A stretch of 42,436 bases of DNA from Reclinomonas americana ATCC 50394 (taxonomy: Eukaryota), in NCBI GenBank assembly GCA_048213135.1, contig PS015196.1, forward strand, positions 41,224 to 83,659. The letters run 5' to 3'. Numbering within the stretch: the first letter of the stretch is position 1; every line of letters begins with the position of its first letter. Shown here one piece after another: positions 1 to 42,080 of this stretch. The notes under the pieces were generated by a model that had not been told where the DNA came from, made no database searches, and worked only from the letters and a program-made list of their open reading frames with translations. The translations under genes were made by a program, and so were the position numbers.

Positions 1-2826
1 GCTGCAGTTGTGAGTGTGATGGAAAGCGGTCGATCTGATACTGCGCACCGCAGATCGAGGAGCTGCAGAACGCGTATACCGAGTCGCGACGGCATGCGGC
101 AGCGGAACAGGAGCGATTGCAGTTGCAGGTGCTGGCGCTCAATTGGAGCTCGTAACTGACTGGAGGCCTCAACGTGACTTGTTGTTGTGCAGATTTCACA
201 ACTGCAACACGCAGTGCGGGAGCACCGAGATGCGCTGCTGGCCATGCAATCAATCTATGACGAAACGCGCGTGACACATCGGAAGGAGGTGGGTCATTCG
301 TGGGCTGACTTGCCGGGCAGGCTCGTCGACTCACATTATATTGTGTGTCGTGCCACAGCTGCAGCGACTGGAGCAAGTGATGGATGGGCAGCGACACTCG
401 TTTGAGGCAAAGGTCCGACATACCGCACACACTGTGTGGGGGAAGAAGAGAAGGAGCTGGGGATGGAGGGCAGAGGGTGAACTTGTATGTGCTTGCTGTT
501 CTGCCAGACCGAGTTTGTCTGCATCCTCGTCCATCCGGCCACAAGACTGAGAGAGAGAGAGAGGGAGAGAGAAAGGGGCGGAAGCCGATGATGGAGCTCG
601 TCAGATAGTGGTTTCTTACAACGCGTCACACAGCTCGCATCGATCGAGGCTTGGCTGGAGGCACCAAGGCATCGTGAGAAATCTTCACGGCCCTCCACGG
701 GAACCAGCGCGGATGAAGGCAGTGACTTGCCGCCGCAGCTGAGCTTACCGGCCCCTTCATCGTCGGCTCCGTTGGACGAGGTTCGTTGGAGTCTTTTTGT
801 TGCACCNNNNNNNNNNNNNNNNNNNNNNNNNNNNNNNNNNNNNNNNNNNNNNNNNNNNNNNNNNNNNNNNNNNNNNNNNNNNNNNNNNNNNNNNNNNNNN
901 NNNNNNNNNNNNNNNNNNNNNNNNNNNNNNNNNNNNNNNNNNNNNNNNNNNNNNNNNNNNNNTTCCGCTGGAGTAGGGCCCTGACCACGTACAGTGGAGA
1001 TGTCAACGCTGCGGTCAACCGGTGACGGATGCGACGACAGAGGAGTGTCGCTATCACCCTGTTGCGTTCACAGGCCCTGCTCGTTCACGCGGCGCCATCT
1101 TGCACGCATGCTCACTGCCCTCGCAGGGAGTGAGTGCTTCTCGGTTATCGCTTTCACGCCATCATCGTACTGACACGTGTGCGCACTCTCCTCGATGTGA
1201 TCTCGCTTCTGTTCGGTGCAGCAAGTTGCGTCGGCGGGTAGCATAGTGCTGTCTTGTCTGTGTGATTTACTCAAGTAGTATTATTTCATGCCTGTGCGCA
1301 GCAAGTTGAGTTACTCGTCTCGTGAGCAGCAATATGTTTGTGTAACTTGTTGCTGATATCCGATGCACCCCAACATCGTGCGTGGAGCAGGCGGTGAGTG
1401 CATGCGTGCTGTTCCTCTTTAGATGTGCCTGCTCACCGTTCGGTTCCGCGCGCAGGTGGTGCGTGAACTGTTGCCACTGTGTGGTCTTGTTACTGCGTTT
1501 GTTTTTTGGTTGTTTGTTCACTGTGGCGACCCTGCTCGCTTCTGCATGGATGGCTGCAATCGTAGCGGGTGAGTGAATATGTGTCCGTGTTTGTGTCACG
1601 ATGAGAAAGACTGCGTTGCTCACGTGATGCGCAGCCGGTGAGTTCTTGTGTAGGCGCCATTGAATCTCGTTGTACCACTACTGACGGGCACTCCTTGGTA
1701 TCACGCGATTCCCAACCACAGCCGGTGAGCTGATGAGATAAGAGTGCATTAATGTTCTCTGGCTGCCATTGCTTGCTCACTGACTTTCTCTTTCACATTG
1801 TGGCAGTCGGTGAGTGATTTCGAGCTGCGAAACCCTTGATTCGTTCTCACATTGAATGTTTGGCTGGCGCTCGACTACGATGACATACAGGAGGTACGTG
1901 CCTGTCGTAGTCGTATCCTTGGTCGCAGCGTCACGTGTCAGCTCACCGTTCAATCGTGTGTCTGTCTGTTCCTTTTCTGCCGATTCGGTGCAGATGGTTC
2001 GTTCCCTAATCCTTGCTCACACTGTGTGTCTTTCGCTACTGACCGGCAACGGGCACAGGGGGTCTGTTACTGGGGGATACGATGCGGGCATGCTACTATT
2101 TGTCTGTGCTCTGTCGCATGTGTGTCGTCAAACATTCCTCTTGGGCTCTGCGATAGTGGCACAGGAGTAGTTCCTTTGTCCCCTTGCTTTGTTCGCTGTG
2201 ATGTGTGGGTTCTGCATCGTGTTTCTCTTTGTGCCTCACAGATTGACTTCTCGCATGTTCGGACGGCAGGGAGTTGCGTTGTTGTGGCTTGGTGCGCTGT
2301 TTATCTTGTCTACTCACTCACACGTACATTTATCGTATGCCTGACAGACCGTTGCGTGGTGTAGCGTATTTCCCAGCTGCTCATCCTGTTTACTCACTCA
2401 CACATGGCCACACGGCGGCGTTGGAACACCGACAGGCGGTACGTCTGCTTGTTCTGTCTCTGTTCTCCCGCACCCATTATCTCACTCGACCCGATCCACC
2501 ACTACGTGTTTGCTGTGATGTGAGCAGGAGGTATGTAATATTGCAAGTATGGTGTGCTGGGAGTTTTCGATTCTCATTTCCTTTCCCCTTCGCAGTGGGT
2601 ACGTTTTCGCCGGCAAACAACATCGTTGTTGTAGTACAACTCATGTTGTTGTTCGTGCTCTTCTACTTCCTCGCTGGCATATCACAGACGGTGAGTTCGT
2701 GCAGTGTTCATCGTGCTGCGGCGCACCGGCTTACACTCACTGTGGCACACTGCACAGTGGACGTGTTGCAATCAATCAGTGGGACCGCAGGCTGTCGGAT
2801 GTGTTGTCGGCAAACACGTGCGGTGA
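1..2826 (+). CDS. Coiled-coil protein with C-terminal CHORD-like zinc-binding domain; 5' part outside window; contains 18 one-codon microexons
   Basis: Hand-spliced phase-0 exons 54-128, 193-288, 359-412 (IEELQNAY...LQRLEQVMDGQRHSFEAK, helical/coiled-coil-like), 634-780, 995-1060 (WRCQRCGQPVTDATTEECRYHP), 18 x 3-nt exons from 1127 to 2690, and last exon 2758-2826 (WTCCNQSVGPQAVGCVVGKHVR*). The pattern CxxC..CxYHPG..WxCC..GCx4H resembles CHORD/Btk-type fingers. An N gap at 807-962 could hide further exons. Confidence 0.85.
1127..2690 (+). other. Array of 18 three-nucleotide (single-codon) microexons
   Basis: YAG|NNN|GT at 1127 GGA, 1222 CAA, 1302 CAA, 1391 GCG, 1456 GTG, 1566 CGG, 1635 CCG, 1722 CCG, 1807 TCG, 1891 GAG, 1994 ATG, 2059 GGG, 2270 GGA, 2348 ACC, 2436 GCG, 2528 GAG, 2596 TGG, 2688 ACG. 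Donors are GTGAGT/GTGAGC/GTGCGT/GTACGT/GTATGT/GTTCGT/GTCTGT/GTTGCGT/GTTGAGT. Introns are 62-107 nt (one is 208 nt), often with CTCAC/CTGAC-like branch sites. Confidence 0.9.
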
Positions 2827-2902
2827 GGCCCCAGCGGAATGCATGGAATCACGAAATGTACGACCTGCAGGGAATGTGTGCTACGATGGAAATTACTACA
2901 AA

Positions 2903-3272
2903 TCAAGTTTGATCTTGCGCTAGTCCTATTACGGCCACAGCGGCCGCCACAAAGCCGAGGCCGCCCAGCATCAGCCATCGGGCCCGACTTGGCGCCTGAC
3001 GCCACTCGCCAAACAAAATACTCCACACGTTGGCTGTTAGTATCACCGAGCTCATGTACACCGGCCACGCGACAACCTCGCCCAGTGCCGTGTACTTGGA
3101 GGCGATACCAAAGAGCAAATATCCTGTGCACGCACACAAAGAGAACGTAAGTAATCTGCGGGGCTACGACGAGTGCGAGTGAGCGAGAGAATGCAGGCGA
3201 CTTCTGTCGCTTGGAACAGGTGTCTCGCAAGGTGCATCTCTCATTCTCCCTCTATCCTACCGCACTTTCTCC

Positions 3273-3305
<33 letters not shown>

Positions 3306-5333
3306 CCACTCACCTGAAAACCACAACAGCCCCATGAACAAGCTCAACAACCACATGCGGAGCACGGTGTAGTCGCAGCAGCTGGACGTTTGCTCTTTCG
3401 GTCCCAGCAGCGGTCTCACTGGCGACCAACTGTACGCCAATTTGACGTCCCCTTTCGGTTCACGCGCACACTGGCAGCACCACAGATTCAGCTGCGCACG
3501 TCGACGAAGCAGGTGTGAGCGATTCGCATAGCAACAACTTACAACCGGGGAATTTGGGAGCCCAAACCTTGCGGTCGGGGTACTGTCGCACTTGCAGCCG
3601 GTACATGATAAGCGTGTACACCGTGTTGACAAAGTAGCCGCCGATGCCAAGAGATAGTGCCCACACAACCAGAGCCGACCGATCTTCGCTCAGATTTTCC
3701 TCAGTCTCCGCGTAGTCAATAAGCGGCTGTCCAATCTGCACAGCGCCGATAAGTGTACACACATGAAAAATGCGAGACGATAGCGGCAAAGAGCGTCGGC
3801 AGCGCACCAGCACAGAGACAACAATGGCAATCGAGCATACACCGGCTACGCAGCACCACATGATGCCTTTGATGTAGTCACGCATCGGCCGGCGGGCGAT
3901 TGGCGAGGCCACGCGGGCTGCGACAGGGACCATGACGTGCTGCGCGACACCGTCCCATATGAGACCGTGGACACGAGGCACGACACGATTGAGCACTCAC
4001 CGCCGACCCTTCATCGGTGAAATCCTCTGCCGACGAGGAACCATAGTTGACACTAATGTCGCGTTGGAGCCGCAAGCCACTTGCCGACCGCTGCGTTCCC
4101 TGCGACGACTCAGATCGCTGGGAGGCAGCAGGTGACGGGTCTACGTGATGCCACACGGCACCAGCCGCGTCCTTGTAGTGGCCCGCGAGAGCACACAATA
4201 CGACCCCGAAGAGCACAATGCCAAGAGAGAGTAACGTCAGGATGCCTGCGAATTGGGTGGAAGGGGGGATGAAGGGCACGACAGCAAGATCAGACGCAGC
4301 GGCGCACGAAACGCGATGTTTTCTGTCTCTCTCTCTCTCTCCCTCCCTCAGCGCAACCACCACCCACCTCTCAGCTTCAGCATCTCATCGCGGTGATTCA
4401 TCAGCAACGCGGCGAGCGAGCCGCCCGTTCCGAGAATGCCAAGCACCAACGAGAACGACATACTCATGCCGATCAAGGCGACAGCCCAGCCAAAGACGAC
4501 GCTGCCGAGGCCCCACACCGCTCCAAAGACCTGCACCATGTATGCAAAGAGAGAGAGAGAGAGAGAGAGAAGAGGGAAAGAGACAGAGAGAGGGAAAGAG
4601 ACAGAGAAAGAGACAGAGAGAGATAGAGAGACAGAGAGAGAACGACAGAGAGAGAGAGCGACAGAGAGAGAGAGAGCGTGACAGAGAGAGAGAGAGAGAG
4701 AGAGCGCGACAGAGAGAGAGAGAGCGCGACAGAGAGAGAGAGAGAGACAGAGAGAGAGAGAGATGAGGAAGAGAGAATGAGAGAGAGAGATAAGANNNNN
4801 NNNNNNNNNNNNNNNNNNNNNNNNNNNNNNNNNNNNNNNNNNNNNNNNNNNNNNNNNNNNNNNNNNNNNNNNNNNNNNNNNNNNNNNNNNNNNNNNNNNN
4901 NNNNNNNNNNNNNNNNNNNNNNNNNNNNNNNNNNNNNNNNNNNNNNNNNNNNNNNNNNNNNNNNNNNNNNNNNNNNNNNNNNNNNNNNNNNNNNNNNNNN
5001 NNNNNNNNNNNNNNNNNNNNNNNNNNNNNNNNNNNNNNNNNNNNNNNNNNNNNNNNNNNNNNNNNNNNNNNNNNNNNNNNNNNNNNNNNNNNNNNNNNNN
5101 NNNNNNNNNNNNNNNNNNNNNNNNNNNNNNNNNNNNNNNNNNNNNNNNNNNNNNNNNNNNNNNNNNNNNNNNNNNNNNNNNNNNNNNNNNNNNNNNNNNN
5201 NNNNNNNNNNNNNNNNNNNNNNNNNNNNNNNNNNNNNNNNNNNNNNNNNNNNNNNNNNNNNNNNNNNNNNNNNNNNNNNNNNNNNNNNNNNNNNNNNNNN
5301 NNNNNNNNNCCCTCCCTCCCTCCCTCCCTCCTC

Positions 5334-22458: not shown

Positions 22459-25202
22459 ATGTCGCGAGAAGACGAGACCGTAATCACTACTGAAGAGCTG
22501 GAAGCCGGCGGCTTTGACGGCGACGACTTTGAGTTGGAGGGCGCTGAAGGCGACGGATACGCCGACGGAAGCGAGTTGCCGAATGAGGGCACCTCTGGAG
22601 CCTCTGACTCTGCAGCAGCTGGTGCTGCAGCAGTGCCGCGCTTTGGCCCACTGTCGGCGAAGAAGCTGAAGGAGGTGAGAAGGCGTATTGAGAGAGAGAG
22701 AGAGATTGTGACTTTTTTGGGCTCTCCTTTGAGGCGCTTTCAGCTGTGCTGCACCTTGGCGCACACTTTGCGCATACGTTGCACGCGCTTGCACTCACTT
22801 AACGCACACTTTCACACACTTTACGCACACTTTTCACTCGTACTCTTGTTACTTTCCACTCACATCGTGCACGCCTTCTGCACACGCTCTCTGTCTCTGC
22901 ACTCTTGCATTGTCGCCCTCAGCGCGACGCAGTTTCCGGGGCGTCTTTGGTGGTGTTGGTGTTGTGCGTGTGTGTGTCTGTGCATGTGAATGTGCACTTG
23001 CACTTTTTTCACACTTTTTTCCTCGCCCGTCCCCTCTGACTCCGTCTTTGTTTGTGTGCCTGTGTAGCTGTGAGTGTGATGATTGCTGCGAATGCAGTTT
23101 CTTTCAGTCACTCTCCCTCAGTCACACCCTCAGTCACACATCCTCGTCACACTCGCAGTCACACTCTCAGTCGCACCCTCTCAGTCGCATCCTCTCAGTC
23201 GCACTCCCAATCACACTCTCAGTCACACTCTCAGTCACACTCTCAGTCACACTCTCAGTCGCACCCCCTGTCACACTCTTAGTCGCACCCTCAGTCACTC
23301 CCTCAGTCGCACCCTCAGTCGCACCATCAGTCACCCACTCAGTCACACTCTCAGTCGCACTCAGTCACACCTGCAGTCTCATTCTCAATCACACTCTCAG
23401 TCGCACCCTCAGTCACACTCCCTCAGTCACACTCTCAGTCGCACCCTTTGTCGCACCTGCAGTCGCACCCTCAGTCGCACCTGCAGTCTCATTCTCAGTC
23501 GCACCCTCAGTCGCACTCTCAGTCGCACCCTCAGTCGCACCCGCAGTCACACTCTCAGTCGCACCCTGCCACACTCTCAGTCTCCTACTCAGTCACACTC
23601 TCAGTCACACTCAGTCACACCCTCCCTCTCCCTCTCACTCACCGCTCTCTTCCCCCTCACAGGCCGTGAAGAAGGAGTACCGCAAAATCCCTGTTCCCCC
23701 ACACCGATTCACGCCGCTGAAGAAGAGTTGGGCGCGCTTGTACCAGCCACTGGCAGAGCACATGAAGCTGCAAGTGCGCATGAACCTCAAGTCGCGCAGC
23801 GTGGAGATTCGAGTTGCGTTGATGTGAGGAGTGAGGGAGAAGGATCGATTGCTCTCTTCTCCTTCTGCTGGGTCTGTCTCTTCTTTTTTTGTCGACTCTT
23901 CTCAGTGACTCTCTCTCTCTCTCAAGTATTGCCAATCTTTGTGCATAATTCTCTTCCCTTCCTCACATCGTGTCCTTCTCTTCCTCCGCTCCTTTCATCT
24001 CTATTTCACCCCAGGTCTTCTTCAGTGTGGTGCTTATCTCGTTCGTGTCGTTGTGTTTTCTTTCCCATTCCCATTCCTCCACGCCTCTTCTCTGCCCTCC
24101 CCCTCATTCCTTATCCATTCTCCTCACCATTCCCCTTCTCCACGGTTCCCCTTCTCACATTCCTCTTCTCCACGCTTCTCTTCTCCACGCGTCTTTTCCA
24201 CGCTTTGCTTTCTCCACGCTTCGCCTTCTCCACGCTTCGCCGTCTCCCCGCTTCTCTTCTCCACGCTTCTCTTCTCCACACTCTGCCTTCTCCACGCTTC
24301 GCCTTCTGCAGGCGTCTCTTCTCGACGCTTCGCCTTCTCCACGCTTCGCCTTCTCCACGCTTCGCCTTCTCCACGCTTTGCCTTCTCCACGCTTTGCCTT
24401 CTCCACGCTTCGCCTTCTCCACACTTCGCCTTCTCCACACTCTGCCTTCTCCACGCTTCGCCTTCTCCACGCTTCTCTTCTCCACGCTTCTCTTCTCCAC
24501 TCTTAGCCTTCTTCACCATTCCCCAACTCCACGCCTTGCCTTCTCCACGCTCTCCCTTCCCCACCCTTTCCCATTTCTCACCCTTCTCTGTTTACCTTCC
24601 CTTCTCCGCCCTTCCGTTCCCTCCCTTTCACCTTCCCCATCCTCAGACGTGCGCCGAAACGGAGGACCCCGGCGCCATCCAAAAAGGCGCCGACTTTATC
24701 GCCGCCTTCCTCATGGGCTTCGAAATCGAGGATGCCGTGGCACTGCTGCGTATGGACGACCTGTACGTCGACACGTTCGAGATCCACGACGTGAAGACAC
24801 TGAAGGGCGACCACTTGTCGCGTGCCATTGGCCGCATCGCCGGCAAGGACGGCAAGACCAAGTTCACGATTGAGAACTCGACAAGAACACGCATTGTGCT
24901 GGCCGACACCAAGATTCACGTGCTGGGCTCGTACTCTAATGTTGCGTGTCGGGATACAGGATGTATTGTGCGAGGTTTCTTCGACTTTCTCCTGTTGCAC
25001 TCTCGCTCTCTCTACCTCAGTGTCTCTTCCTCTCGTTATCGTCGCTCTCTATCTTGGTGACAGCATCTTCTCTTTCTCATGCCGACCGCGGTCTCGTATG
25101 TTCCTCTTGCGTATCGCCTTGCATTTCGATCCTGTATTTCGGTGGCGCACAGCGGTGGAAGGTACCGTCTATTACAGGAAGTGTGTCTTCTGTGATGAGC
25201 AA

Positions 25203-25243
<41 letters not shown>

Positions 25244-26003
25244 CCTCTCTCTTTCCCACTCTCTCATCGTGTCTCTCCTCATCCTACTGAAGCCAGAAGG
25301 CATCATCGTGATTGCGCGTCTTCAGAGATGAACATCTGTCTCTCCCTCCCTCCTTCACTCGCGCCTCTCGTGCTGTCTCTCCCTCTCCTCCTCCGCTTCC
25401 ACCTCTCGTACTTTGTTGTCTCTCTTCATGCCAGTGAAAGCTGAAGTCACCGTCGTGATTGTGCGTCTTCAGAAACGATCATTTTTTCTCACTCTTTTCA
25501 GCTCCATTTGTACTCTCATATCCTTCTCTCGTCATTCCACTGAAACTTGAGGGCATCATCTTGTACAGGGATTTCCTTTCTGACGAGCCTCTCTTCGTCT
25601 TCTTCTTGTTCTTCTCTCTCACTCTTTGTGACCCACTCTTTCATCTCGAACTCTTAAATCTCTCCTCGATTCGCTGAATGTTGAAGGCATCGTCGATGCC
25701 AGTAATTGTGTGTCTCCAGAGACTCTCTCTTTGCAAACTGTCTTGTACTCTTGTGTCTCTCATCACTCTACTGAGCCGTCTTGTCCTTTCCGCTGCCTTC
25801 CTTCCCCTTCCCTCTTCCCCCTTCCCCTCATCACCCTTTTCCCTTCTTCCCCTCTTCCCCCTTCCCCTCACACCCCCCTTCCCCTCTTTTAGATCAAGAT
25901 CGCCCGCGACGCCGTCGTCTCCCTCATCCTCGGCTCCCCGGCCAACAAAATCTTCGCCAAGCTGCGCACCGTCATGGGACGCATGGCCGATCGGAGGTTT
26001 TAA
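22459..26003 (+). CDS. PNO1: Pre-rRNA processing KH-domain protein PNO1/DIM2, 4 exons, 256 aa
   Basis: Exons 22459-22674, 23663-23812, 24647-24940 and 25893-26003, all phase 0. Motifs [79 protein letters not shown]. Confidence 0.97.
23105..23620 (+). repeat. Intronic minisatellite, about 12-nt unit CAGTCRCACYCT
   Basis: Tandem cagtcacactct/cagtcgcaccct in PNO1 intron 1. Confidence 0.9.
24165..24550 (+). repeat. Intronic minisatellite, about 16-nt unit TTCTCCACGCTTCGCC
   Basis: Tandem copies in PNO1 intron 2. Confidence 0.9.
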
Positions 26004-26191
26004 GGGGGCGCGGTAAAATTGTAGCAGGAGATGAAATTATGTGAGTCCGAACTTATAAAACAGCGGTGGTCNNNNNNNNNNNNNNNNNNNNGCTGCGTCT
26101 GTTTAATTTCTGCTGATCCACGGCGCGCGCAACACACACGTTCTCGCACAATAACGATTCAAAAATGGGGGAGTGAGACCACAGCGCGCGC

Positions 26192-29100
26192 TTACAGCTC
26201 CTCGTCGAGGAAGCGCGTGTACAACTCGGTCTTCTTTTGCGGAGGTGCCACCGTCTTCTTCTTGCACCAGTCGTGCTTGAGGCCGTACCAAATCACAAAG
26301 ATCACCAGCGCGGCTCCGACAATGGAGAAGACCACAGCCTGCGTGTGGATGAGTCGCTATGCACACAGACAGCAAAAAAGATGACGACGACGACCACAGC
26401 AATAACGCAACAAGAGCAATCACATAGGCCGGTGTGCCGCTGGCAGTGGCGCTGACAGAGATCTGGCTGCTGGCCACTGTGACGAAATTGGTCGAGTCCG
26501 CAAAGCGGATGCACATTTGGTAGGAGCCAGTGGAGGAGATCGACAGCGGGAAGGTGTCCTGATCGCCAATCTGGCTGTTGGCTGTTTGAGGGGATAAAAA
26601 GAAGTTAGGAGTCTCGCGAGGTATCGTCACACGCTTCACCACCATGCGCAACTAATGACGCCGAGGGACACCGACGGGTCGTTCGACAGCGTGGTCTGCG
26701 ACTGGCACTGCACCGTCGGCTGCACGATGCGAATCACATCGGCCGAGGTGAGACCAGTGCCCGACACCGTCATTGTGATTTGCGTGTTGACGACAAAGCT
26801 GGTCGGGGTGAAGCCGGTGGTCGTCGGCACGGCCACGGCCACCACGCCGTTGCGCACCGTCTGGAAGTTCGAGAAGCCCGAGAAGCGGATGCAGATCTGC
26901 GGCGAGGGATGAGTGAGCAGCAAAGAAAGGAGCATCACAACCGGGAGAGTGTGGACAACCAAATAAGGCGTCCAACAATCAGGGGGAATGTGTTACAACG
27001 AGGCCAGGTGCGTCACAACCAANNNNNNNNNNNNNNNNNNNNNNNNNNNNNNNNNNNNNNNNNNNNNNNNNNNNNNNNNNNNNNNNNNNNNNNNNNNNNN
27101 NNNNNNNNNNNNNNNNNNNNNNNNNNNNNNNNNNNNNNNNNNNNNNNNNNNNNNNNNNNNNNNNNNNNNNNNNNNNNNNNNNNNNNNNNNNNNNNNNNNN
27201 NNNNNNNNNNNNNNNNNNNNNNNNNNNNNNNNNNNNNNNNNNNNACGCAACTGCATAGGCACCGACTTGCGCAATCGTGGCCTGGAAGCTCAGCACCGTG
27301 GCCGCATCATTAATGGTCTGAACCGAACCAACGGTGACTCCTGGCGCGTTGACTGGCGATCCCTGCGTGCAGTCGCCGCTCTCCTGGATAATGACGATCG
27401 AGTCGGACGGGCGCAGACCCTGACCAACGACGCTAAACGTGGTCACAATGACCGACGAGCGCACGGCCACTGGCGGGCCAAAGTTGTTGGTGGAGGGTGC
27501 TGTGATTAATACGCAAGTAATGGACGTGAGTGATGGAGAAATCCACAGTTCAAGAAAAGAAGCATTTTTCAAGAAGATCGCAAGAACAGGACCATCTCTC
27601 TCTCTCACACACACAAACAAACTTTTCACATTTCCTCTCTCTTTTGCTCACTTTCTATGATTCTCTAACTCCTTCACAGCAAAACACTCAGCACCACAAC
27701 AGGACCCACGATCAAGCCACGAGACACGCGCATCAACACAAAACCCCCCGAACATTCAAAAACGAAAACACACGACGATCATACGTCAAGAGATTAGCAC
27801 AGCGCACGAATCAAACGAGCAGAGAGGACACGCCAGAAAAGCACAAACAGAGACATAGCTGATAACTCAGGTGAATAACGAAATATGCCCACGCATACTC
27901 AACCACAAAAGAACTAAACATAACCACATCTTCAACTTAAACCTGAGAATACACGCACACGCACACAAGCACGCACACACACACACACACACACAACTGC
28001 ATCTTTCTCACTCTCCTCCTGTCCTTCTCCCCTTCCCCTTCCCATTCACCTCCCTCCCCTCCCCCTTCCCCTTTTCTTTCCCTTCCCTTGACCCCTTCCC
28101 TCCACCCCTCCCCCTTCCCCTTTCCTTCCCCTTTGACGAAACTGATGGACTGAATTGTCCCTGGCACCGCGCTCGGCGACGTCGGCTGATTGGTGCCCCG
28201 GAACGACACACAGAACATAAAATTGGCCAGCGCCGTGGGCGTCACCGGCACAATCAAATTCGACGTGGTCGGATCCACCGACGGCGAGCCGACCGACACC
28301 AGTGGCGAGTTGCCCGACGCATTGCTGCAGGTCGCGCGCACCACAATTGCAGGTGACGCGGACCGCGCAGAGAGCGAGCTGCCATCGGCGACTCCCTCCG
28401 CACCCGTGGTCATGTCGGGGGTGATGACAAACACCTGATTGAAGGAGCTCATGGCCGCGCCAGTAATCATCACATTGTTGATGGCATTCAGTGCCATGGG
28501 TGGGGCGGTGATGCCAATGGTTTGCGGCGCTGTGACGCGAGGAAGACAGTGAGTGAGTGCGCGCGGGCGGGCGGGTAACAAAAAGGAAGAATTGCACTGG
28601 CGACGAAACTGGTGACCACCAAAGCCGGCGAGCCCGCCAGCGTAGTGTACGTCGAGGAGCCCGAGAAGAGCATGCACGGAGTGTACGAGCCGGCCGTCGA
28701 GCCAGTAATGGTCACAAACAGCATGGTGCCCGTTGAGTTGGCGGTCACCGTGCCAATATTGAAGGACGAGTTGCTCATGACATTCTGTGCGCGCACATAA
28801 GAGGAAGGTGAGACGCAGCATAGACAATCCTGAAAAGGAAGCCGCACGAAACATTGCCACCGCACGTCGTGCCAGAGCCGACAATGGCCAAGACGGAGTT
28901 GGTGGCCGCGAGGTACTGTCCTTTCATGGTGAACACCACAGCAGCGCCCGGTCCAATAGACAGCGGCCATGCCAGCGATTGCACGGCAGCTAAAATAGAG
29001 TGAGTCAGACGAAATGTGTTATGACAACAAGCAATGCTAAAATAACGCACAGTTGACGGTGAGAGTGCCGTTGGTGACGGAGCTGTAATTGGCGGTGCCG

Positions 29101-32100
29101 TTCAGCTTGATACACAGCCTGTACTGGCCGGCAGCTTGCACGTTTACAGTGATGACCAACAGCGAACTGGAGACCGCCGTGATAGTGGAGATGGAGAATC
29201 CGCTCTGTTCAGAGATGGTGAGCACACTCCACTTTCTCTCCTCTTTTCTCTTCCAGTCCCACTCACCGCCACCGGCGGCTGCGGCACGGCGCACGAATTG
29301 GTGACAGCCGTCGCCGTAATAGTGTTGGACGAATTCAGCTGCGAGCCGGAGATGCTAATGGTCACGGAGGTGTTGGCGGCGATCTGTGTGGGCGCCATGT
29401 TCGAGGTTGTGGAGCCTGCAAATCGGATTAGGGAGATACGAGTTTAGCGGTGCGGGACAGCTGACAGTGATTCGAGGAGACAAGGAAGGAAGAGAGCAAC
29501 GAAGATTGCCGTCGTTGCTCTCTTTTCTCATCGCTGCTCTCGTTCTCTCTCTCTCTCGCTGCTCTTTCTCGCTGCTGCTCTCTCCTTCTCTCGCTGCTCT
29601 CTCCTTCTCTCGCTGCTCTCTCCTTCTGTCGCTGCTCTCTCCTTCTGTCGCTGCTCTCTCCTTCTGTCGCTGCTCTCTCCTTCTGTCGCTGCTCTCTCCT
29701 TCTGTCGCTGCTCTCTCCTTCTGTCGCTGCTCTCTCCTTCTGTCGCTGCTCTCTTCTTCTGTCGCTGCTCTCTTCTTCTGTCGCTGCTCTCTTCTTCTGT
29801 CGCTGCTCTCTTCTGTCGCTGCTCTCTTCTGTCGCTGCTCTCTTCTGTCGCTGCTCTATCCTCTCGCTGCTGCTCTCTCCTCTCTCGCTGCTCTCCTCTT
29901 CTCTCGCTGCTCTCCTCTTCTCTCGCTGCTCTCCTCTTCTCTCGCTGCTCTCCTCTTCTCTCGCTGCTCTCCTCTTCTCTCCCTACTACCCCTCTCCCTT
30001 TCCGCAATCCTCCCTTTCCCTTTCCCCCCTCCCTTACCGTTGATGGACAACACTCCCACCAGCGACGGCTGATTGTTACCAAAGTACGTGACACACACAT
30101 TGTAGTTGGCCACCGGCACCGCGTTGACGGAGATGCTGAAGACCAGCGCCTGCGGCCCAAGCGAGCTCAGCGACGAGATGGAGGTGACAGTCGGGTCGTT
30201 CTGCTGCGCCGATCCGCAGCTGATGACGCTGTTGACGACCAGCACCGAGTTGTTGGTTGCCGCAAAGTTGGCACCCTGCACGGTGACTTGCGTCAGCGTG
30301 TTCGGGCCAATGGCCGCGGGCACAAGGGCGGTGGAGGTCGGCGCTGTGAACGCAAGCACATTAGTGAGAAGTGGTTCGTTCAGACACGAGATGAATGCAC
30401 GCAGACATACCGAGAACGGAGAGGACACCCGAATTGACGGCCACGTAGTTGACGGAGCCAGAGAACCTGCGATGGCAAGTGAGATACTCAGCCGAGACAT
30501 GTTCCATGTGAATAGCACGCAACAGAATGCACAGCTGCATCGACTGAGCCTGGCTGGTGGTGAAACCAACGGACACGATATTGGCGCCCTGAATGTTGAG
30601 CGAGCCAGTCGTCATGGTGGTGCTCGGTGGCAGTTGCGGATTCTGCGAGTTGCACGACTGCGAGTTGGTCGTCAACGTCATGGCGACAGTGGCGCCCAGC
30701 TGGCTTCCAGAGACAGTGACAGTCGTCTGTGTGGCGAACGGCACTTGCGACGGAGTGACGGACGTCGTGTTGGCGGAGATCTCTGCATGGAGGCAGTGAG
30801 TCGGAAATTGAAGGTACTTGGAAAAGATATGAATGACGCAACGCTGCAGGGTGAACGTGCCACCTTGCACAGTGACGAACGAAACGCCGTTCTGCAGCCT
30901 GTTGGGCACGAACGAAAAAAGTTAGAAACCAAGTTGCCAAGCATGCTCCATTCCTCTCGCTCTGCTCCATTCCTCTCGCTCTGCTCCATTCCTCTCGCTC
31001 TGCTCCATTCCTCTCGCTCTGCTCCATTCCTCTCACTCTGCTCCATTCCTCTTGCTCTGCTCTTTCCCCTCCCGCTTATGGACGCAACTTGATGCAAATA
31101 TTGTAGGTGCCCAGCGCAGCATTGCCAGTGGCAATTGGCACCGTCATGAGGTTGCCACCGCCAGTCGGCGTGCCAATGTTGAAGCCAGCGGCGGCAGTCG
31201 GGTTGGACGCGACACACGAACTCGCCGCCGGCACCACCACAATATTGTTGGTGGTCTGCAGGTTAAAGCCGGTAATGGTCACCGACGTGGTGGCGTTAGG
31301 CGCCAAAAGCACCGGGTTGAAGCTGGTGGTGGTGGCATCTGCGCGGACACAGAGAGGGTGGTGAGACAACAGACAAGGTGATTTCACTCTCCCTCTCACA
31401 CACCAACTCTCTTCGCTTCCTCCTCCTCTTTCTTCTCCTCATCTCACTCTCTTTCTCTCTCTTTCTCTTTTCTTTCTCTCTCTCCCACTCTCTCTAGAAC
31501 ACCAATTCGCGTTGTCTCCTCCTCCTTCTGATCTCCCTCTCTCACTCTCCATCTCACTTCCCACCCTTCTCCTCTTTCACTTGCCCTTCCATCCCCTTCT
31601 CCTTCCCCCACTCACCCGTGATTCCCAATTGTCCATTGATGACGGCCACATACGCCGGCGCTCCCGAGAACTTGATGCAAGTAACGTACTGACCGGCGGG
31701 ACCCGAAATCTGCACCGTCTCGTTGCTGATGCTCGTGCTGGCGACCGCGCTCACTGTCACCGTGTTCACTTGAGCGGAAGTTCCGCAAGTGCCACCCGAC
31801 GCAATCACTTGGATCGAGTCGTTGGCGCCAAAGCCGTAGCCTTGAACTGCGCAGTTATCGAAAAGAATGAGGGGTCACTGATTGTGCGTACGTAATTCCA
31901 CATCCACCAACTGCATCGCAACTGGTGACAGTCTTGGACGGGTTGCCGCTGCCAATGGTGGCCGGCGAAATGCCGGTGGTGCCCTGCACACCGAGGTTGC
32001 CGCCATTGACCAGCACGTATTGATTGGTGCCGGTGAACTGCAGGCAGACGAGGTAGGCTCCCGGTGAGCTAATCGCCACACCGCTGATGACGAGTTGCGT

Positions 32101-35100
32101 GGGCGGTGTGCCGGCAGTGACGAGGCCAATGACCACACCCGAGGCGGGTGCCGGGTCGGTGGCGCAGTTGCCGCCAGCGGGGAGGATCTTGATGGCGTCG
32201 GTGCCGGAGAAACTGCGGGTGAGGGAAAGGGTGAGCAGGGTAAGGGAGAAAGAGGCAAAGAGGGAGAAAGAGGGAAAGAGAGAGAGAGACAAAGAGGGAG
32301 AGAGAGAGACAGAGGCAAAGAGAGAGAAAGAAGAAAGAGAGAGAGAATCAGGAAAGAGAGCGTGGAAAAGTAAGAGAATGAGGAAAAGGAGGGAAGAAAT
32401 GAGAAAGAAAGGCACAGAGAGAAGGAGAGAGAAAGAGAAGCAGAGGGAGAGGTGAGGAGAGGCAAAGGCCAAAGGTTAAGGGGCGATAAGAGAGAGAGAG
32501 AGAAAAGAAGTGAGCGAATGAGAGTTCGAGACGAGCAAGAACAAATGCGCACATAGGAAAACTACTCTACTTGCCAACAGCTGCACACGGGAAATCTCAC
32601 TCACTCTCACTAACGCGGTCTGACTCTGAGAGCTCTCTCTACTTCTACTTGCAGCAACCATTCTACTCCGCTCGTGCTTCTGCAGACACAGGTGCAATCG
32701 CCTCTCACACGCATGTTCTCATCCTCATGCAGCCCGCAAAAATTCGCAGAGACACATAAGATACTGCTCACTGTCTCACGTACGCACAGCCTCTTGCCGA
32801 ACGCAAGCAGTCCTCTCCACATCTCGCAAACAAACATTTCGTTCTCAATCAACACATCACACACCAATCTCTCAGTCCTCTTGCTTGTTTGCTCTTGTTC
32901 CTCCTCCTCCTCCTCCTCCTCCTCCTCCTCCTCCTCCTCCTTCTCCTCCTCCTCTTCTTCTTCTTCTTCTTCCTCTTCTTTCCCATTCTCTCTCTCTCTC
33001 TACTTCCCGCCAATCCCTCCCCCTTTGCTCACCCGAATCCCTGCACCGTCACCGGGGTCGCCACTCGGGGGATCAACGGCGGAGTGATGCCGGTGGTGCC
33101 CTGCACGTACACAATGCCGTTCGTCACCTTGGCGTACGACGTTGCCGACGCCACCCTGCAACCATCGTTAGCCACAAATATCACGATCGACAAACACAAT
33201 ACCCGAAACGCACATGATGCACAGCTGGTAGCCGCCGCTTGTGCTGCCAGTCAGCTGCACAGTCAGTGCCGTGGACGCGGTTGACGAGAGCGCGCCGACT
33301 GTGATGGCAGTCGACGGAGTGTCGGTGCAGGCACCAGTGGAGGCCACCGCAATCACGGTATTGGCTGTGCTCAGACCAAAGCCCTGAATGACAATGCCCG
33401 TGGCCACGTTCGGCACGAGAACGCTGGAAGCGAGGCCAGTGGTGCCGGCCGCCACAAGCGTGGTGGGCACGGCAGCGAACTGGCCACCAGGGAACTGGAT
33501 GCAGAGCTGGAAGTTGCCGGGCGTGGGAATGGTGACAGGCACCTGCAGCTGGATCGGGGTGCCGGCCAGCGCGCCGACCACAATGTTCATCGGCTGAGTG
33601 TCGGCGCAGGTGCCGGCGGCGGTGACGACCTTGAACGCGTCGCTGGAAGGGGGAAAGGGGAAGAGAAGGGAAGGAGAGAGGGAAAGGGTGAATACATGAC
33701 ACAAAAACACGACAAATTGAGCAATAATCTCTCTCCGTGTGCGTGTGAGAGAGAGGACAGAGCACGCAGCATTATTGATGAAGACTGTTCTCGCATTTCC
33801 TCACTTTTCACTTCTCTCTCTCACACACACACACTCTCTCACACAGTCTTCCCATTTTCTCCCTTTCATCTTTCCTCTCTCTTCCCTCCTCTCTCTCTCT
33901 CATCCTTCCCCCACCCCTTTCCCTANNNNNNNNNNNNNNNNNNNNNNNNNNNNNNNNNNNNNNNNNNNNNNNNNNNNNNNNNNNNNNNNNNNNNNNNNNN
34001 NNNNNNNNNNNNNNNNNNNNNNNNNNNNNNNNNNNNNNNNNNNNNNNNNNNNNNNNNNNNNNNNNNNNNNNNNNNNNNNNNNNNNNNNNNNNNNNNNNNN
34101 NNNNNNNNNNNNNNNNNNNNNNNNNNNNNNNNNNNNNNNNNNNNNNNNNNNNNNNNNNNNNNNNNNNNNNNNNNNNNNNNNNNNNNNNNNNNNNNNNNNN
34201 NNNNNNNNNNNNNNNNNNNNNNNNNNNNNNNNNNNNNNNNNNNNNNNNNNNNNNNNNNNNNNNNNNNNNNNNNNNNNNNNNNNNNNNNNNNNNNNNNNNN
34301 NNNNNNNNNNNNNNNNNNNNNNNNNNNNNNNNNNNNNNNNNNNNNNNNNNNNNNNNNNNNNNNNNNNNNNNNNNNNNNNNNNNNNNNNNNNNNNNNNNNN
34401 NNNNNNNNNNNNNNNNNNNNNNNNNNNNNNNNNNNNNNNNNNNNNNNNNNNNNNNNNNNNNNNNNNNNNNNNNNNNNNNNNNNNNNNNNNNNNNNNNNNN
34501 NNNNNNNNNNNNNNNNNNNNNNNNNNNNNNNNNNNNNNNNNNNNNNNNNNNNNNNNNNNNNNNNNNNNNNNNNNNNNNNNNNNNNNNNNNNNNNNNNNNN
34601 NNNNNNNNNNNNNNNNNNNNNNNNNNNNNNNNNNNNNNNNNNNNNNNNNNNNNNNNNNNNNNNNNNNNNNNNNNNNNNNNNNNNNNNNNNNNNNNNNNNN
34701 NNNNNNNNNNNNNNNNNNNNNNNNNNNNNNNNNNNNNNNNNNNNNNNNNNNNNNNNNNNNNNNNNNNNNNNNNNNNNNNNNNNNNNNNNNNNNNNNNNNN
34801 NNNNNNNNNNNNNNNNNNNNNNNNNNNNNNNNNNNNNNNNNNNNNNNNNNNNNNNNNNNNNNNNNNNNNNNNNNNNNNNNNNNNNNNNNNNNNNNNNNNN
34901 NNNNNNNCCCCTCGCTCACCTCGCCGGGTCGAAACCAAATCCATTGACGCTCACGGTGGAGGCCGTGCTGGAGGCCACCACCACCGCCGGGGTGATACCT
35001 GTCGTGCCCTGCACGTACAGCGCACCGGTACCCACGGTCTGGTACTGCGGCGAGTTGCCGACCTTCATGCACACCAGGTACTGGTTGGCCGCCGAGGCCA

Positions 35101-35993
35101 TGGTGGTGACGAGTGCGGTGACCTTGGTGCCGTCGGTGCCCACCGCCGCCGTGCCGGTGACGGTGACGCCAGCAGCTGCCGCGGTGCCGCACGTGGCTCC
35201 CGTCACCACCTGAATCGAGTCCGATGCGCTGAGGCCGACACCGGTGATGGTGACCGTCGTGGCGGCTCTGTAAAGGAGAAGGAATGAGTAAAAGACAGGC
35301 ATTCATCGTGATTTGACTGTCTTCCTCACTCACCCTGGCGGAATCGACACTGGGCTCAACGAGCTCGCCGCCTGTTGAAGAAAATGCAATCAGTCGCACA
35401 TTATTTATCTGTGAGCGTACACAGCGACGCAACAGTGATGGTAAGAGTGCCATTCGGGACGGCAGTGAAGGTGCCGCTGCCAAGCCTGCGAAAGAGCATT
35501 ACAATTAAGCAGGAGAAGATACGAAGGAATGAAGGCCTCAACAAGCACGCAACTGCAAGCACACAGTGTACGGTCCAGCACTCGCGATACCCGTGGCAGT
35601 CACGGCAGCAAGAACGCTGGTGCTGGTCGACATGGCACTGACCATGACTGCGATGGCCGCCGGCTGCGTTGCCGAGCACATGGTGCCAGTGACGAGCTTC
35701 ACATTCGGGCTGTTTGATGGAAAGAGAGAGTGAGCAGCTGGCGACTGCAGATGGCGGTGCCTTCATCATCGTCACAGACATACCTGGCCGCAAGACCAAA
35801 GCCTTGAATGGTGACCGTAGTCTGAATGTCGTGCGTGATGGCTGATGGCGAGATGCCAGTCGAGCTGTGCAAAGAGAAAAAGAGGGCAGAGGGAGAGGGA
35901 GAGGGGAGAGGGGAGAGGGAGAGGGAGAGGGAGAGGGAGAGGGAGAGGGAGAGGGAGGGAGGGAGAAAGGGAGAGGGAGAGAGGCAGGCAGGC

Positions 35994-36052
<59 letters not shown>

Positions 36053-37600
36053 GAGGAGATGGAGGGGGAGAGACGGAGAGCGATAGACAAACAGTCAAGA
36101 GTCAGCGAAAATCACACGACCACCAACTCGTGCAGCAACAGGTCCACAAACCCTTGAACCACGAGCGCATTGGTGGCTGGCACCGCCGGCTGTCCATTGA
36201 TGCTGCAGGCACACTTTTCTGTCAGTGCTCTCGTCAGGATGCCACATACGTAAGCGGTGCCCCATACGCAACACAATGCACACGGTGAAGGCACCGGGAT
36301 TGGTGCCAGTGACCTGCACAAAGAAGAAGCTCAGCACACCGTTCTCCATTATCGATAAAGCCATCTCGGGAAAAACGCAACAGGAGTCGAGATCTGCTGC
36401 GCGGAAGTGACGGTCACCGCGCCAAACGTGACCGAGTTAACCGCGGCACTCGTGCACGCAGAGTTTTGCGCCACCGCCGTGAACGTGGGAGTCTTGTCGA
36501 GACCGAAGCCGGTGAAGGTAATGACGGTGGCGGAGGCGGGTACAATCGTCAGCGGAGTCGCGTTTGTCACACCCTGTGCAACCACGATGAGCGCGTCATC
36601 GAATTTCTTCTCGCAACTGGCAACAACAAGACCTGCACAGTGAGATTGCCACCCGTCACGGCAGCGTACGAATTGCCACCCGTTGGCCTGCATGCATGCG
36701 TATGAGAATGGCTATGATGAAAACATGTGGCTCGACGTTGACACGCAACTGAAGGCACACGATAAACAGGTTCGGCGTCGTGGTCGTCGCAGACACCACG
36801 AGCTGGGTCGGCGACGGTGAAGCGCGGTTCGTGATGGTGATGCTGGCGTCCTGCGCATTGCCGGTGCATGTGCCGCCGGTGGCAATCACCTTGACCAGAT
36901 CGGTGGCTGCGAGACTGATCGCGAAGAGTGTTCAGCATCATCGTGTGTTGGTATGAAACAAGATGGACAATATGCACTCACCCGTCGCCATTGATGGTAA
37001 AGGCGGTCATGCCGACCGGCACCTGAGTCGGCGTGATTGACTGTGTGCCTGTGGAGGGAAACAAAATGTGAGCTTTGTCAAGCAGACTCCACGTGACAGC
37101 AGCCTGGTCTCACCTTGCACAAACAAGTCGCCCGACACATTCACAGCGGTGCCCATGCCACCATATCTGCAGAGGATAAGAAACTAAGCATTTGTGTCGA
37201 GAACGACACAAGCACAGGATACTGCTGAGGCGCACGCAACTGGATGCACATCACATACTGTCCTCCAGTGTTACCAGTGCCATTCACAGTCACCGCGAAT
37301 GCAATGCTGGTGGTACCAGTCGCCGTCACGGCGCCGACGGTGATCTGTGAAGCATCGTACGCAGGTGATGAGAACATGATCATCATGTCTGGATCTAGTG
37401 TCACCTTTTCTTTTTCTTCTTCTTTCTCTCTCTGTCTCTCTCCAAACCTTCTCTTCTCCCTCCCACTCTTTCCTCGTTGATTCTCGCCAATCGCACTTGG
37501 ATTTTTCTCTGCTCTCACCTCTCTTCTTCTTCTTGTTGTTCTTCGTCTTCTTGTTCTTCTCCTTCTTCTTCTTCTTCCTTCTTCTTCTTCTTGTTGTTGT

Positions 37601-37632
<32 letters not shown>

Positions 37633-40455: not shown

Positions 40456-40499
<44 letters not shown>

Positions 40500-40773
40500 T
40501 ATTTTCTCGTCTTCCACTATGCCACTTCAAGAATGTGGTATCTCTCATTCAGTCTCGTGCTCAGTTATTCTCTGCTGCGTTCGCATCCTTGAGTTGCTGT
40601 TGTACTCTCAGTGCGTGCGCGTGTCGGTGAATGTGCATCATCATCTCTGCAGTCCGCGCCTGCTGCAAATTGTTGCGGTAATGCGCTCTCCTCATTCTGT
40701 GTGTGCTCCGCATTTCTCTTCCCTATCACTCGCTCTGTTGCACTTGTCTCCCGTTCCGACTCACTCACTCTCA

Positions 40774-40869
<96 letters not shown>

Positions 40870-42080
40870 ATCGCTGCCACAACTTTCCTCACAAGGTGAG
40901 ACAAGCGACGTTCAACAAAGTGCATCGTTCTCCTTTCCTCATCCTCCCTTCTCGTGCTCGTGCTGATCTCAATCTTGTTCATGAAGAGAATGAAAGTAAG
41001 AGAACAGTGGAGGGGGAAAAGAAAAACGCAGAGCTCTTTGCGAGAAAGGGCAAAGAAATGAACAGTCACAATTACATCTCTGACGCTGCTCCTCCCCTGC
41101 ATCGGTATCCATTCTCCCCGCAGTAATCTCTTCGCCTTCCTCCCTCCCCTCCCCCTTCCCTCCCCTTCCCCCTCCCCTTTTCACTCACCCGGAGTGGCCA
41201 CAGTCAACGGAATCGCCACCGGCGTCAGCGTCGTCGTGCCCTGCACGTAGAACATCGTTCCGCCATTCACGTCGTAGAACGCGCCAGTGACAAACTGGAT
41301 GCACACGCGGTAGGTGCCAGCGGCAGAGCCGGCGACACTCGCCGTGAGATTCGGGGCCACGAGCGTGATATTCGCGGCGGTGATCGACATGACAGCGGCG
41401 TCGGCGCAAGTGCCAGCGGCGGTCACGAACTTGATCACATCAGTGGCCGCGAGGCTGCGTGCGACTTTGGAATGAGCGCAGAGGCACGACGAAGCGCGAC
41501 TCGAGTGAATGACGCAACGCCAGTCCCGTAATGGTGACTGTGGTGGCCGTGCCAGGCGGTGACGGAAGACCCTGAATCGGTGAGAATCCGGTGGTGCCTG
41601 TGTTCAAAGAATCAGCAGCTCTTTCTCTGCACAAAGTAAATGATACAAGACGCACCCTGCACCAACAGCGGCGTCGTGGACACTGGCACTGCGGTTGCTG
41701 CCGTGCCCACCCTGCAGACCAAATTGCTAAGCGCCCATTCGAACAATGGAGAGAGAGGCGAGAGAAACGAAACTTGATGCACAGGGTGAGCGAGAGAACA
41801 GCAGTCGACTTGACAGTGAAGCTGTCGACTGTGCCGCCGACGCTGGTGATCGCGCCGATGGTGACGTGCGCGTCGTTGGGTTGCGTGGCGCATGTGCCCG
41901 TGGAGATGGCAGTGATCTGCAAAGGCATTGTCAGCAATGAGGGGAAAAGGCACAGGGGAAACAGAGGGTGAAGCACACATGCCTGATCAGTCATGGACAA
42001 TCCAACGCCGGTGACAGACACCACTGTCGTCATGTCGTTCAGTGACACGAATGCCGGGGAGAAGACGCCGGTAGGACCGC
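26192..42080 (-). CDS. Giant type-I membrane/cell-surface protein with at least about 23 IPT/TIG-like beta repeats and two CHRD domains; 5' end beyond window
   Basis: Repeat of about 95 aa: GTTGxSPxxI..TxTIxGFGL...DxIxVV..GxxC...GxYxxCIxF...YxxV...LxVQ. Last exons give AYVIAL|AVVFSIVGAALVIFVIWYGL (TM helix) then KHDWCKKKTVAPPQKKTELYTRFLDEEL*, with TAA at 26192-26194. CHRD motifs (AHIHGPA...GEIRGQ) at about 38440-39135. Confidence 0.88.
29530..29980. repeat. Intronic minisatellite, about 16-19-nt unit TCGCTGCTCTCTCCTTCTG
   Basis: Tandem array read directly inside an intron of the giant gene. Confidence 0.9.
30945..31062. repeat. Intronic minisatellite, 19-nt unit CTCCATTCCTCTCGCTCTG (about 6 copies)
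   Basis: Period-19 tandem array read directly. Confidence 0.9.

Follow-up and report, generated by a model that had tools for sequence, protein, structure and literature searches.

Runs of consecutive one-codon exons have been described in Tuber melanosporum, whose NACHT-ankyrin (nank) genes carry "tens of codon-sized microexons" according to the passages that cite Iotti et al. 2012 (Fungal Biol 116:261; citing passages in PMC4986451, PMC3689799, PMC10197012, PMC13449251 and PMC9815663). Dyrka et al. 2014 and Bidard et al. 2013 are among the works citing these arrays, the latter with the phrase just quoted, and a 2022 paper speaks in its passage on them of "dozens of 3 bp mini-exons" that diversify the C-terminal recognition domain, a statement that recurs in passages of papers from 2023 and 2026. 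Our literature search on runs of exons of 3 nucleotides (nt) returned isolated 3-nt exons and the Tuber citations, and nothing further. Here we describe a run of this layout at positions 1061-2757 of a 42,436-nt stretch of contig PS015196.1 (assembly GCA_048213135.1, positions 41,224 to 83,659, forward strand), the whole of which is called the window below. A preliminary description of the stretch had drawn attention to the run and had known of no other case with an intron after every codon; as to the latter it is contradicted by the Tuber arrays, published in 2012 as their citing passages report. The one-codon-per-exon layout has already been described, and the array in the window is another example of it, in another gene. 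From its sequence we consider it likely that 1061-2757 is an old array of units that each consist of a short intron and one codon, placed in the last coding part of a coiled-coil gene between the two halves of a putative Cys/His zinc-binding module, and spliced stepwise.

The array and its host gene

The gene that hosts the array comes in over the left edge of the window on the plus strand, with its 5' part beyond that edge. Six larger exons are visible.

54-128, plus strand: upstream exon, coiled-coil-like, 75 nt, 25 codons, predicted to be in phase 0 at both ends with CAG and GT bounds
193-288, plus strand: upstream exon, 96 nt, 32 codons, predicted borders
359-412, plus strand: upstream exon, 54 nt, 18 codons, predicted borders
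634-780, plus strand: upstream exon, Ser/Pro-rich, 147 nt, 49 codons; the next intron contains a run of N at 807-962
995-1060, plus strand: exon with the first half of the Cys/His module, C-x2-C-x11-C-x2-H, ending in ...YHP
2758-2826, plus strand: last coding exon with the second half of the Cys/His module, W-x-CC-x10-C-x4-H, 22 codons and TGA

All six of these exons (75, 96, 54, 147, 66 and 69 nt) are divisible by three and every visible intron is in phase 0; by our own arithmetic, the chance that five internal exons should all be multiples of three is about 1 in 243.

Between the last two of these exons, a pattern search for [CT]AG-NNN-GT on the plus strand of 1061-2757 finds exactly 18 matches, the triplets of which begin at the first positions of the 18 microexons listed further below. 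The acceptor is CAG at 17 of the 18 sites and TAG at one (1563-1565), and the triplets follow one another at start-to-start distances of 65-110 nt with a single exception of 211 nt. All of these sites lie where the preliminary description had placed them, with the spacing and acceptors that it gave, and its 18-residue string is likewise reproduced: none of the triplets is a stop, and their joined translation reads G-Q-Q-A-V-R-P-P-S-E-M-G-G-T-A-E-W-T. If the triplets count as codons, the coding share of the region is 54 of 1697 nt. The further statement that the region holds no credible open reading frame (ORF) stands in part, in that the stop-free frames crossing 1061-2757 have no Pfam match at E-values (E) up to 10; such frames of 174, 221 and 134 amino acids on the plus strand and of 136 on the minus strand do nevertheless run across it.

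The enrichment of YAG-NNN-GT sites in the region is far beyond chance. In 2000 dinucleotide-preserving shuffles of the region the loose pattern occurs 4.12 +/- 1.98 times, with a maximum of 12, as against the 18 observed, and with the strict donor GTNN[GC]T there are 13 sites as against 0.76 +/- 0.87, with a maximum of 6 (2000 shuffles). Loose sites number 48 on the plus strand and 45 on the minus strand in the 37,471 non-N bases of the remaining window, or about 1.2-1.3 per kb, as against 10.6 per kb in the array, and elsewhere in the window, on whichever strand, sites form chains of 3 at most. When spacers of 0-15 nt between acceptor and donor are compared, the enrichment is found at 3 nt alone. 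The preliminary description had named shuffled and ordinary intronic sequence as the proper comparison, and neither attains the density of the array: two homology-backed introns of 831 and 949 nt in the PNO1 gene of the window contain 0 and 2 loose sites. Tandem Repeats Finder reports nothing in the region except a 22-nt GTTT run, which means that the units are not head-to-tail copies at least about 70% alike.

The exons on either side, 995-1060 and 2758-2826, jointly carry six Cys and two His, which would be enough for two zinc sites. Beyond exon 995-1060 a matching frame is next found in the last exon, whose W.CC is the only one in any forward frame between about 1000 and 3000; after its His come a Val and an Arg codon and then TGA. 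The CHORD pattern comprises six Cys and two His in blocks C-x-YHPG, W-S-CC and GC-x2-G-x-H, and modules of the BTK/CHORD type have about 7-11 residues between HPG and W-x-CC. By eye, C-x-YHP, WTCC and GC-x2-G-x-H can be made out in the two exons, with spacings unlike those of CHORD; the case for the YHPG motif that the preliminary description expected, with its Gly supplied by the first triplet, is a weak one. CHORD itself gives no hit to exon 995-1060 or to the last exon at E up to 10 when the exons are searched singly, exon 995-1060 has no BTK match and zinc-knuckle hits at chance level only, and a sequence search of PDB finds nothing for the last exon and chance-level rubredoxin and zinc-knuckle entries for exon 995-1060. 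Exon 634-780 is without a Pfam match, and no homologue of it was found among longer proteins; exon 995-1060, lengthened to 40 amino acids by intron-encoded residues, had too few words in common with any candidate protein. The visible exons of the host gene have no NACHT or ANK match in Pfam, the 5' end of the gene lying beyond the window. One match of the last exon together with nine intron-encoded residues, to a protein here called P0122 (E 1e-23), was rejected as a sole hit to a spurious repeat protein: P0122 has 1435 amino acids, an OGG1-like start and then 17 near-identical copies of a Cys/Trp-rich, frameshift-like unit, and looks like a mis-translated tandem repeat.

Splice signals of the 19 intervals

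The 18 triplets divide the region into 19 intervals of 62-107 nt, apart from one of 208 nt, and if these are introns all of them are in phase 0 and 18 of 18 exons are 3 nt long. In the parts list that follows, every microexon is a match of the search pattern, and the number after a branch-type motif gives its distance in nt from the 3' end of the intron.

1061-1126, plus strand: intron 1, 66 nt, GTTGCG donor, CTCAC at 12, CAG acceptor
1127-1129, plus strand: microexon 1, Gly codon
1130-1221, plus strand: intron 2, 92 nt, GTGAGT donor, CTGAC at 48
1222-1224, plus strand: microexon 2, Gln codon; 13 of the 14 nt from acceptor to start of donor shared with microexon 3
1225-1301, plus strand: intron 3, 77 nt, GTTGCG donor, weak branch candidates TTTAC at 32 and TTCAT at 13
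1302-1304, plus strand: microexon 3, Gln codon
1305-1390, plus strand: intron 4, 86 nt, GTTGAG donor, CTGAT at 34
1391-1393, plus strand: microexon 4, Ala codon
1394-1455, plus strand: intron 5, 62 nt, GTGAGT donor, CTCAC at 20
1456-1458, plus strand: microexon 5, Val codon
1459-1565, plus strand: intron 6, 107 nt, GTGCGT donor, TTCAC at 45, the sole TAG acceptor
1566-1568, plus strand: microexon 6, Arg codon
1569-1634, plus strand: intron 7, 66 nt, GTGAGT donor, CTCAC at 12
1635-1637, plus strand: microexon 7, Pro codon; 11 nt of acceptor, codon and donor identical to microexon 8
1638-1721, plus strand: intron 8, 84 nt, GTGAGT donor, CTGAC at 37
1722-1724, plus strand: microexon 8, Pro codon
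1725-1806, plus strand: intron 9, 82 nt, GTGAGC donor, CTCAC at 27, CTGAC at 23
1807-1809, plus strand: microexon 9, Ser codon
1810-1890, plus strand: intron 10, 81 nt, GTGAGT donor, CTCAC at 41
1891-1893, plus strand: microexon 10, Glu codon
1894-1993, plus strand: intron 11, 100 nt, GTACGT donor, CTCAC at 48
1994-1996, plus strand: microexon 11, Met codon
1997-2058, plus strand: intron 12, 62 nt, GTTCGT donor, CTGAC at 16
2059-2061, plus strand: microexon 12, Gly codon
2062-2269, plus strand: intron 13, 208 nt, GTCTGT donor, CTCAC at 31, about twice the usual length
2111-2135, plus strand: last-exon-like putative relic within intron 13, 22 of 25 bases shared with 2792-2817, one gap
2161-2170, plus strand: possible dead unit within intron 13, ACAG and a triplet, no GT at +4, no branch motif upstream
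2270-2272, plus strand: microexon 13, Gly codon
2273-2347, plus strand: intron 14, 75 nt, GTTGCG donor, CTCAC at 31 and 27
2348-2350, plus strand: microexon 14, Thr codon
2351-2435, plus strand: intron 15, 85 nt, GTTGCG donor, CTCAC at 39 and 35
2436-2438, plus strand: microexon 15, Ala codon
2439-2527, plus strand: intron 16, 89 nt, GTACGT donor, CTCAC at 43
2528-2530, plus strand: microexon 16, Glu codon
2531-2595, plus strand: intron 17, 65 nt, GTATGT donor, CTCAT at 19
2596-2598, plus strand: microexon 17, Trp codon, the same as codon 1 of the last exon
2599-2687, plus strand: intron 18, 89 nt, GTACGT donor, CTCAT at 44
2688-2690, plus strand: microexon 18, Thr codon, the same as codon 2 of the last exon
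2691-2757, plus strand: intron 19, 67 nt, GTGAGT donor, CTCAC at 18, CAG acceptor

The donor GTTGCG(T) opens 4 of the 19 array introns, intron 1 among them, and the others begin with GTGAGT or GTGAGC (7), GTACGT (3) and, once each, GTGCGT, GTTCGT, GTATGT, GTTGAG and GTCTGT. The donors of all intervals are of types that recur elsewhere in the window, as had been claimed. In particular, both introns of the PNO1 gene open with the unusual heptamer GTTGCGT, at borders set by tblastn with PNO1 proteins, and on the minus strand many repeat-domain exons end in front of it as well. It is thus a frequent 5' splice-site sequence here: besides 1061, 23813 and 24941 it is present at some 20 other places, counting both strands, and GTTGCG occurs 24 times per strand. 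A literature search on GTTGCG as a splice donor returned unrelated papers only, with no such donor consensus described.

At the other end of the intervals, YAG terminates 19 of 19. Of the 19 introns, 14 have the motif CT[CG]AC at 8-50 nt from their 3' end, as against 3.07 (maximum 8) in 1000 shuffles, and 17 have the broader CTNA[CT] at that distance, as against 6.82 (1000 shuffles). Column counts around the 18 microexons find conservation at -3 to -1 and at +4 to +9 only. Donors, branch motifs and acceptors thus look like three independent signals for 19 short introns, and these signals lend support to the anatomy first proposed for the region, in which 18 exons of three bases alternate with 19 phase-0 introns between 995-1060 and 2758-2826.

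History of the array

The bodies of the introns have diverged widely. Neighbouring array introns are 0.51-0.54 identical, as against 0.49 +/- 0.11 for unrelated introns, and 9 of 171 intron pairs are more alike than 99% of shuffled pairs. A stretch of 28 nt is common to introns 14 and 15 at 86%, in register, and microexon pairs 2/3 and 7/8 have the same codon and near-identical junctions, self-blastn finding short matches only. The Trp and Thr codons that open the last exon are also those of microexons 17 and 18. The 25-mer in intron 13 matches the last exon with a score reached by 0 of 300 dinucleotide shuffles, which with 18 units tested is moderate support. A second last-exon relic seen by eye, unit 17 (microexon 17 and intron 18), was rejected as not significant (z 0.6).

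As part of the reading of the locus that we consider likely, the array would have grown by tandem duplication of intron-plus-codon units, would be old, and would be able to lose units. At least one duplication event may have copied part of the last exon, and at least one unit may have been lost in intron 13, which is probably two former introns fused. That 18 of 18 spacings are exactly 3 nt and that the splice signals are intact despite the decay of the intron bodies argues for selection on splicing and is the chief argument from within the array that the sites are in use.

Arrays of the same build in metagenomes

Metagenome contigs were scanned for a donor and, after it, two CAG-NNN-GTGAG[TY] sites, with a spacing of 45-75 nt. 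This pattern occurs once in the window and in none of 100 shuffled versions of it, and about 10 chance hits were roughly estimated for the scan. The pattern favours GTGAGT donors and the rule used to chain sites is heuristic, so that the counts are rough. At least 119 metagenome loci contain the pattern. By the chain rule, at least 5 linked sites are present in 103 of the 119 matches listed, at least 12 in 62 and at least 20 in 30, and the longest array among the matches listed has 83 units. Examples of listed arrays are:

L013, 44-5746
L035, 4001-6724, minus strand
L056, 1901-4590
L095, 10849-13322

The array introns among the matches listed have a median length of 66 nt and a median neighbour identity of 0.73, and mismatches per site amount to 0.62 in the triplets and 0.375 in the introns. 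The 84 listed arrays with varied triplets contain 13 stops in 1631 triplets, as against 106.5 expected from position-wise base frequencies and a minimum of 81 in 1000 permutations, and 74 of the 84 are stop-free; in the 15 listed arrays with one monotonous triplet there is no depletion (41 stops, 36.5 expected). The depletion of stops among varied triplets indicates that the triplets of the metagenome arrays are read as codons. ORFs with NACHT/NPHP3_N and ankyrin domains lie directly upstream on the same strand in loci L075, L117, L118, L064 and L055, and an ankyrin ORF in L105; 10 of 11 scanned upstream ORFs carry these domains, and ten further ORFs near other listed arrays have no Pfam match. 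The listed loci are the published Tuber-like kind in environmental DNA. Sorted by intron type at 70% identity, the arrays among the matches listed form 33 clusters, of which the largest comprises 32 arrays from 22 loci, and the GC content of the listed array loci ranges from 0.36 to 0.60. Such numbers suggest that one-codon arrays are far commoner in soil eukaryotes than one would gather from the one paper cited for them.

Two side observations concern the products of these loci. In L035, L095 (two arrays), L063 and L024 the last unit is followed by a short, similar hydrophobic last exon, which looks like a C-terminal membrane anchor, and in the part encoded by the array Glu, Arg, Asp, Phe and Leu are abundant.

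Proposed splicing and alternative explanations

Exon definition is sterically excluded on a 3-nt exon. In the mechanism that we propose, each of the 19 intervals would act as a complete spliceosomal intron that brings its own donor, CTNAC-type branch site and YAG acceptor; it would be recognized across the intron (intron definition) and removed stepwise, most simply in the 5' to 3' direction during transcription. Once an intron had been removed, the enlarged upstream exon with the next triplet would provide an ordinary exon context for the next donor, and one codon would be left per step, giving up to 18 residues between ...YHP and WTCC.... Since the exons are of 3 nt and the introns in phase 0, any subset that was skipped would leave the frame intact, and the length of the loop could drift or vary. 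It is the use of the sites, the order of removal and the number of codons reaching the mRNA that we infer from sequence. By analogy, intron-defined stepwise splicing can reasonably be said to agree with the known fungal precedent, and the reality of the architecture elsewhere, in the metagenome and truffle arrays, raises our belief that the array in the window is spliced as proposed.

Several points weigh against this proposal. The absence of stops among the 18 triplets, although correctly reported at the outset, is uninformative because only about 0.5 stops are expected among 18 triplets so rich in G (a hand calculation from position-wise base frequencies). The match of the last exon to the BTK motif (PF00779) is below threshold at 13.1 bits (E 0.096, cut-off 24) and covers profile positions 12-25 of 30. 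A loop of 18 residues appears long for the BTK/CHORD type, for which no loop at all (0 residues) would seem atypical too, and the 18 inserted residues are without the usual aromatic positions. Introns 3 and 6 have weak branch candidates only, and protein homology searches found no orthologue and no annotated or transcript-derived protein of the host gene. In addition, the PNO1 introns show that long introns are handled in this genome, and removal of 1.7 kb in one step is therefore conceivable. Position 1060 would then be joined directly to 2758, in frame and with an H-x3-CC spacing that could perhaps still bind zinc, and the internal sites would be decoys or skipped relics of duplicated intron ends. 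We regard this as unlikely. Unused sites should decay, whereas all 18 here keep their 3-nt spacing and donors and mostly their branch motifs, and the sole dead-looking unit has lost donor and branch together; the skipping of 18 acceptors would be unusual under intron definition with units of 62-107 nt, as established knowledge has it, and the ordinary long introns of the window carry no more than two such sites.

Stepwise splicing of the array could also take a more elaborate form, in which the one-codon exons are alternatively included to give up to 2^18 in-frame variants of the loop, of differing length and sequence. This refinement is possible, if somewhat doubtful. The frame is kept by every subset, the quality of the donors differs along the array from GTGAGT to GTCTGT and GTTGAG, the larger visible exons also have lengths in multiples of three, and the passages on the truffle NACHT-ANK genes report alternative inclusion there; but the host is not visibly an immune receptor, nothing suggests why a small zinc module should have to be diverse, and the introns of the window are diverged, unlike the homogenised introns and hypervariable triplets of the metagenome arrays, which suggests that the array in the window is not being actively diversified. 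We give very little credence to the idea that the 3' end of the gene is dead or mis-assembled, be it a decaying pseudogene tail or a tandem-repeat assembly artefact. The window does have ten runs of N, one of them in the intron just upstream (807-962), and a gene for which homologues were sought in vain might be a dead one; there is, however, no N within 963-4200, the units are diverged rather than collapsed copies, every unit has retained its splice signals, and the open frame of the last exon completes the Cys/His pattern. Least probable of all, in our estimate, is a small-RNA host gene, with the introns as the functional product and the triplets as mere spacers. Tandem introns that each encode a small nucleolar RNA are known in mammals, as reported for SNHG14, but the only Rfam match of the region is at E 0.37 with none at gathering score, the folding energies of the array introns are the same as those of shuffles (mean z -0.07), and the introns are not conserved among themselves.

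Implications

If transcripts confirm the proposed splicing, the locus would be an extreme test of the spliceosome on exons far below the limit of exon definition, with 19 successive splicing events to add 18 residues. The layout, so far cited for truffle NACHT-ankyrin genes only, would occur in another gene family and organism, and such arrays would be seen to persist long after their introns have diverged. On a broader view, which we put forward with considerable reserve and would not ourselves bet on, the array could have arisen independently, in an unrelated gene of a non-truffle and possibly non-fungal eukaryote with unusual GTTGCGT donors, as an instance of a general way to in-frame segments of adjustable length, here a loop in a zinc-binding module that splicing could select from up to 2^18 variants. 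The array is also a trap for annotation: standard gene finders and short-read aligners cannot place 3-nt exons, and the host gene is likely to be called as truncated or with a single 1.7-kb intron.

Other features of the window

The window contains many GA and GT microsatellites, and no tRNA gene and no Rfam family was found in it. A PNO1 gene was placed in it by homology:

23663-26003, plus strand: PNO1, KH-domain pre-rRNA processing protein, exons 23663-23812, 24644-24943 and 25893-26000 (tblastn)

Its introns are of low complexity, and the PNO1 exon searched against the protein collection is at most about 83% identical to proteins of very diverse eukaryotes. On the minus strand, 26000-42300 (e.g. 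38227-39687) is occupied by a long gene or gene cluster of repeated exon-sized domains, with ...C-I/L-K/Q ends before the GTTGCGT donor; two CHRD domains are found in these repeats (E 1.5e-37), and the other repeats are without a Pfam match. An Atlas look-up of the CHRD ORF gave bacterial CHRD clusters only (0.81) and is uninformative. The convergent neighbour of the array's host gene, at 2921-4100 on the minus strand, encodes a predicted multi-pass membrane protein with a SLAC1/TDT-type hit below threshold (E 0.0013), and its stop lies about 100 nt from that of the zinc-module gene.

Comparison with known systems

Among systems with very small exons, the micro-exon genes of Schistosoma have exons of variable length (6-36 nt) and long introns. 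Their large number of tiny symmetric exons, the choice among which varies the protein, is reminiscent of the array in the window; an intron after every codon, however, is not part of their layout. Isolated 3-nt exons of animals, plants and fungi, such as the 27 reported in 26 genes in the passage on Coprinopsis cinerea (PMC12230235) and the 3-bp exon described for Drosophila homothorax (PMC7392893), likewise place a single codon between two introns and call for intron-by-intron splicing, but they occur singly, whereas the window has a run of 18. In the recursive splicing of long Drosophila introns at ratchet points (PMC6110457), a long interval is also taken out in successive steps, with acceptor and donor juxtaposed and the upstream exon re-used; ratchet points, however, are of zero length and leave nothing, whereas each step in the window would leave 3 nt, and zero-spacer AG/GT sites of the ratchet type number 0 in 1061-2757 and 5 on the plus strand of the whole window. 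The introner-like elements of fungi, in the passages on them (PMC3609843 and PMC4457414), offer a parallel in the multiplication of short, near-identical spliceosomal introns, but are dispersed among genes, whereas the units of the window are in tandem with one codon each.

The closest system is still that of the Tuber nank genes and their metagenome counterparts, and the differences from it are several. The host in the window has a coiled-coil-like part and a Cys/His module and is not, in its visible part, a NOD-like receptor (NLR), and its array has 18 units where the citing passages speak of dozens in Tuber. Neighbouring introns are more alike in the metagenome arrays (by the medians given above for the matches listed) than in the window, and the GTTGCG donor of the window array is absent from all listed metagenome arrays of at least 8 units. 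Alternative splicing has been reported for the Tuber arrays in the passages that cite them; for the array in the window it is a possible refinement, as set out above. In intron length the two kinds are close, with a median of 66 nt in the NACHT/ankyrin-linked metagenome arrays and 62-107 nt in the window, and the plan of the locus, so far as the passages on Tuber describe theirs, is the same in both: consecutive 3-nt exons with short introns, all in frame and toward the 3' end of the coding region.

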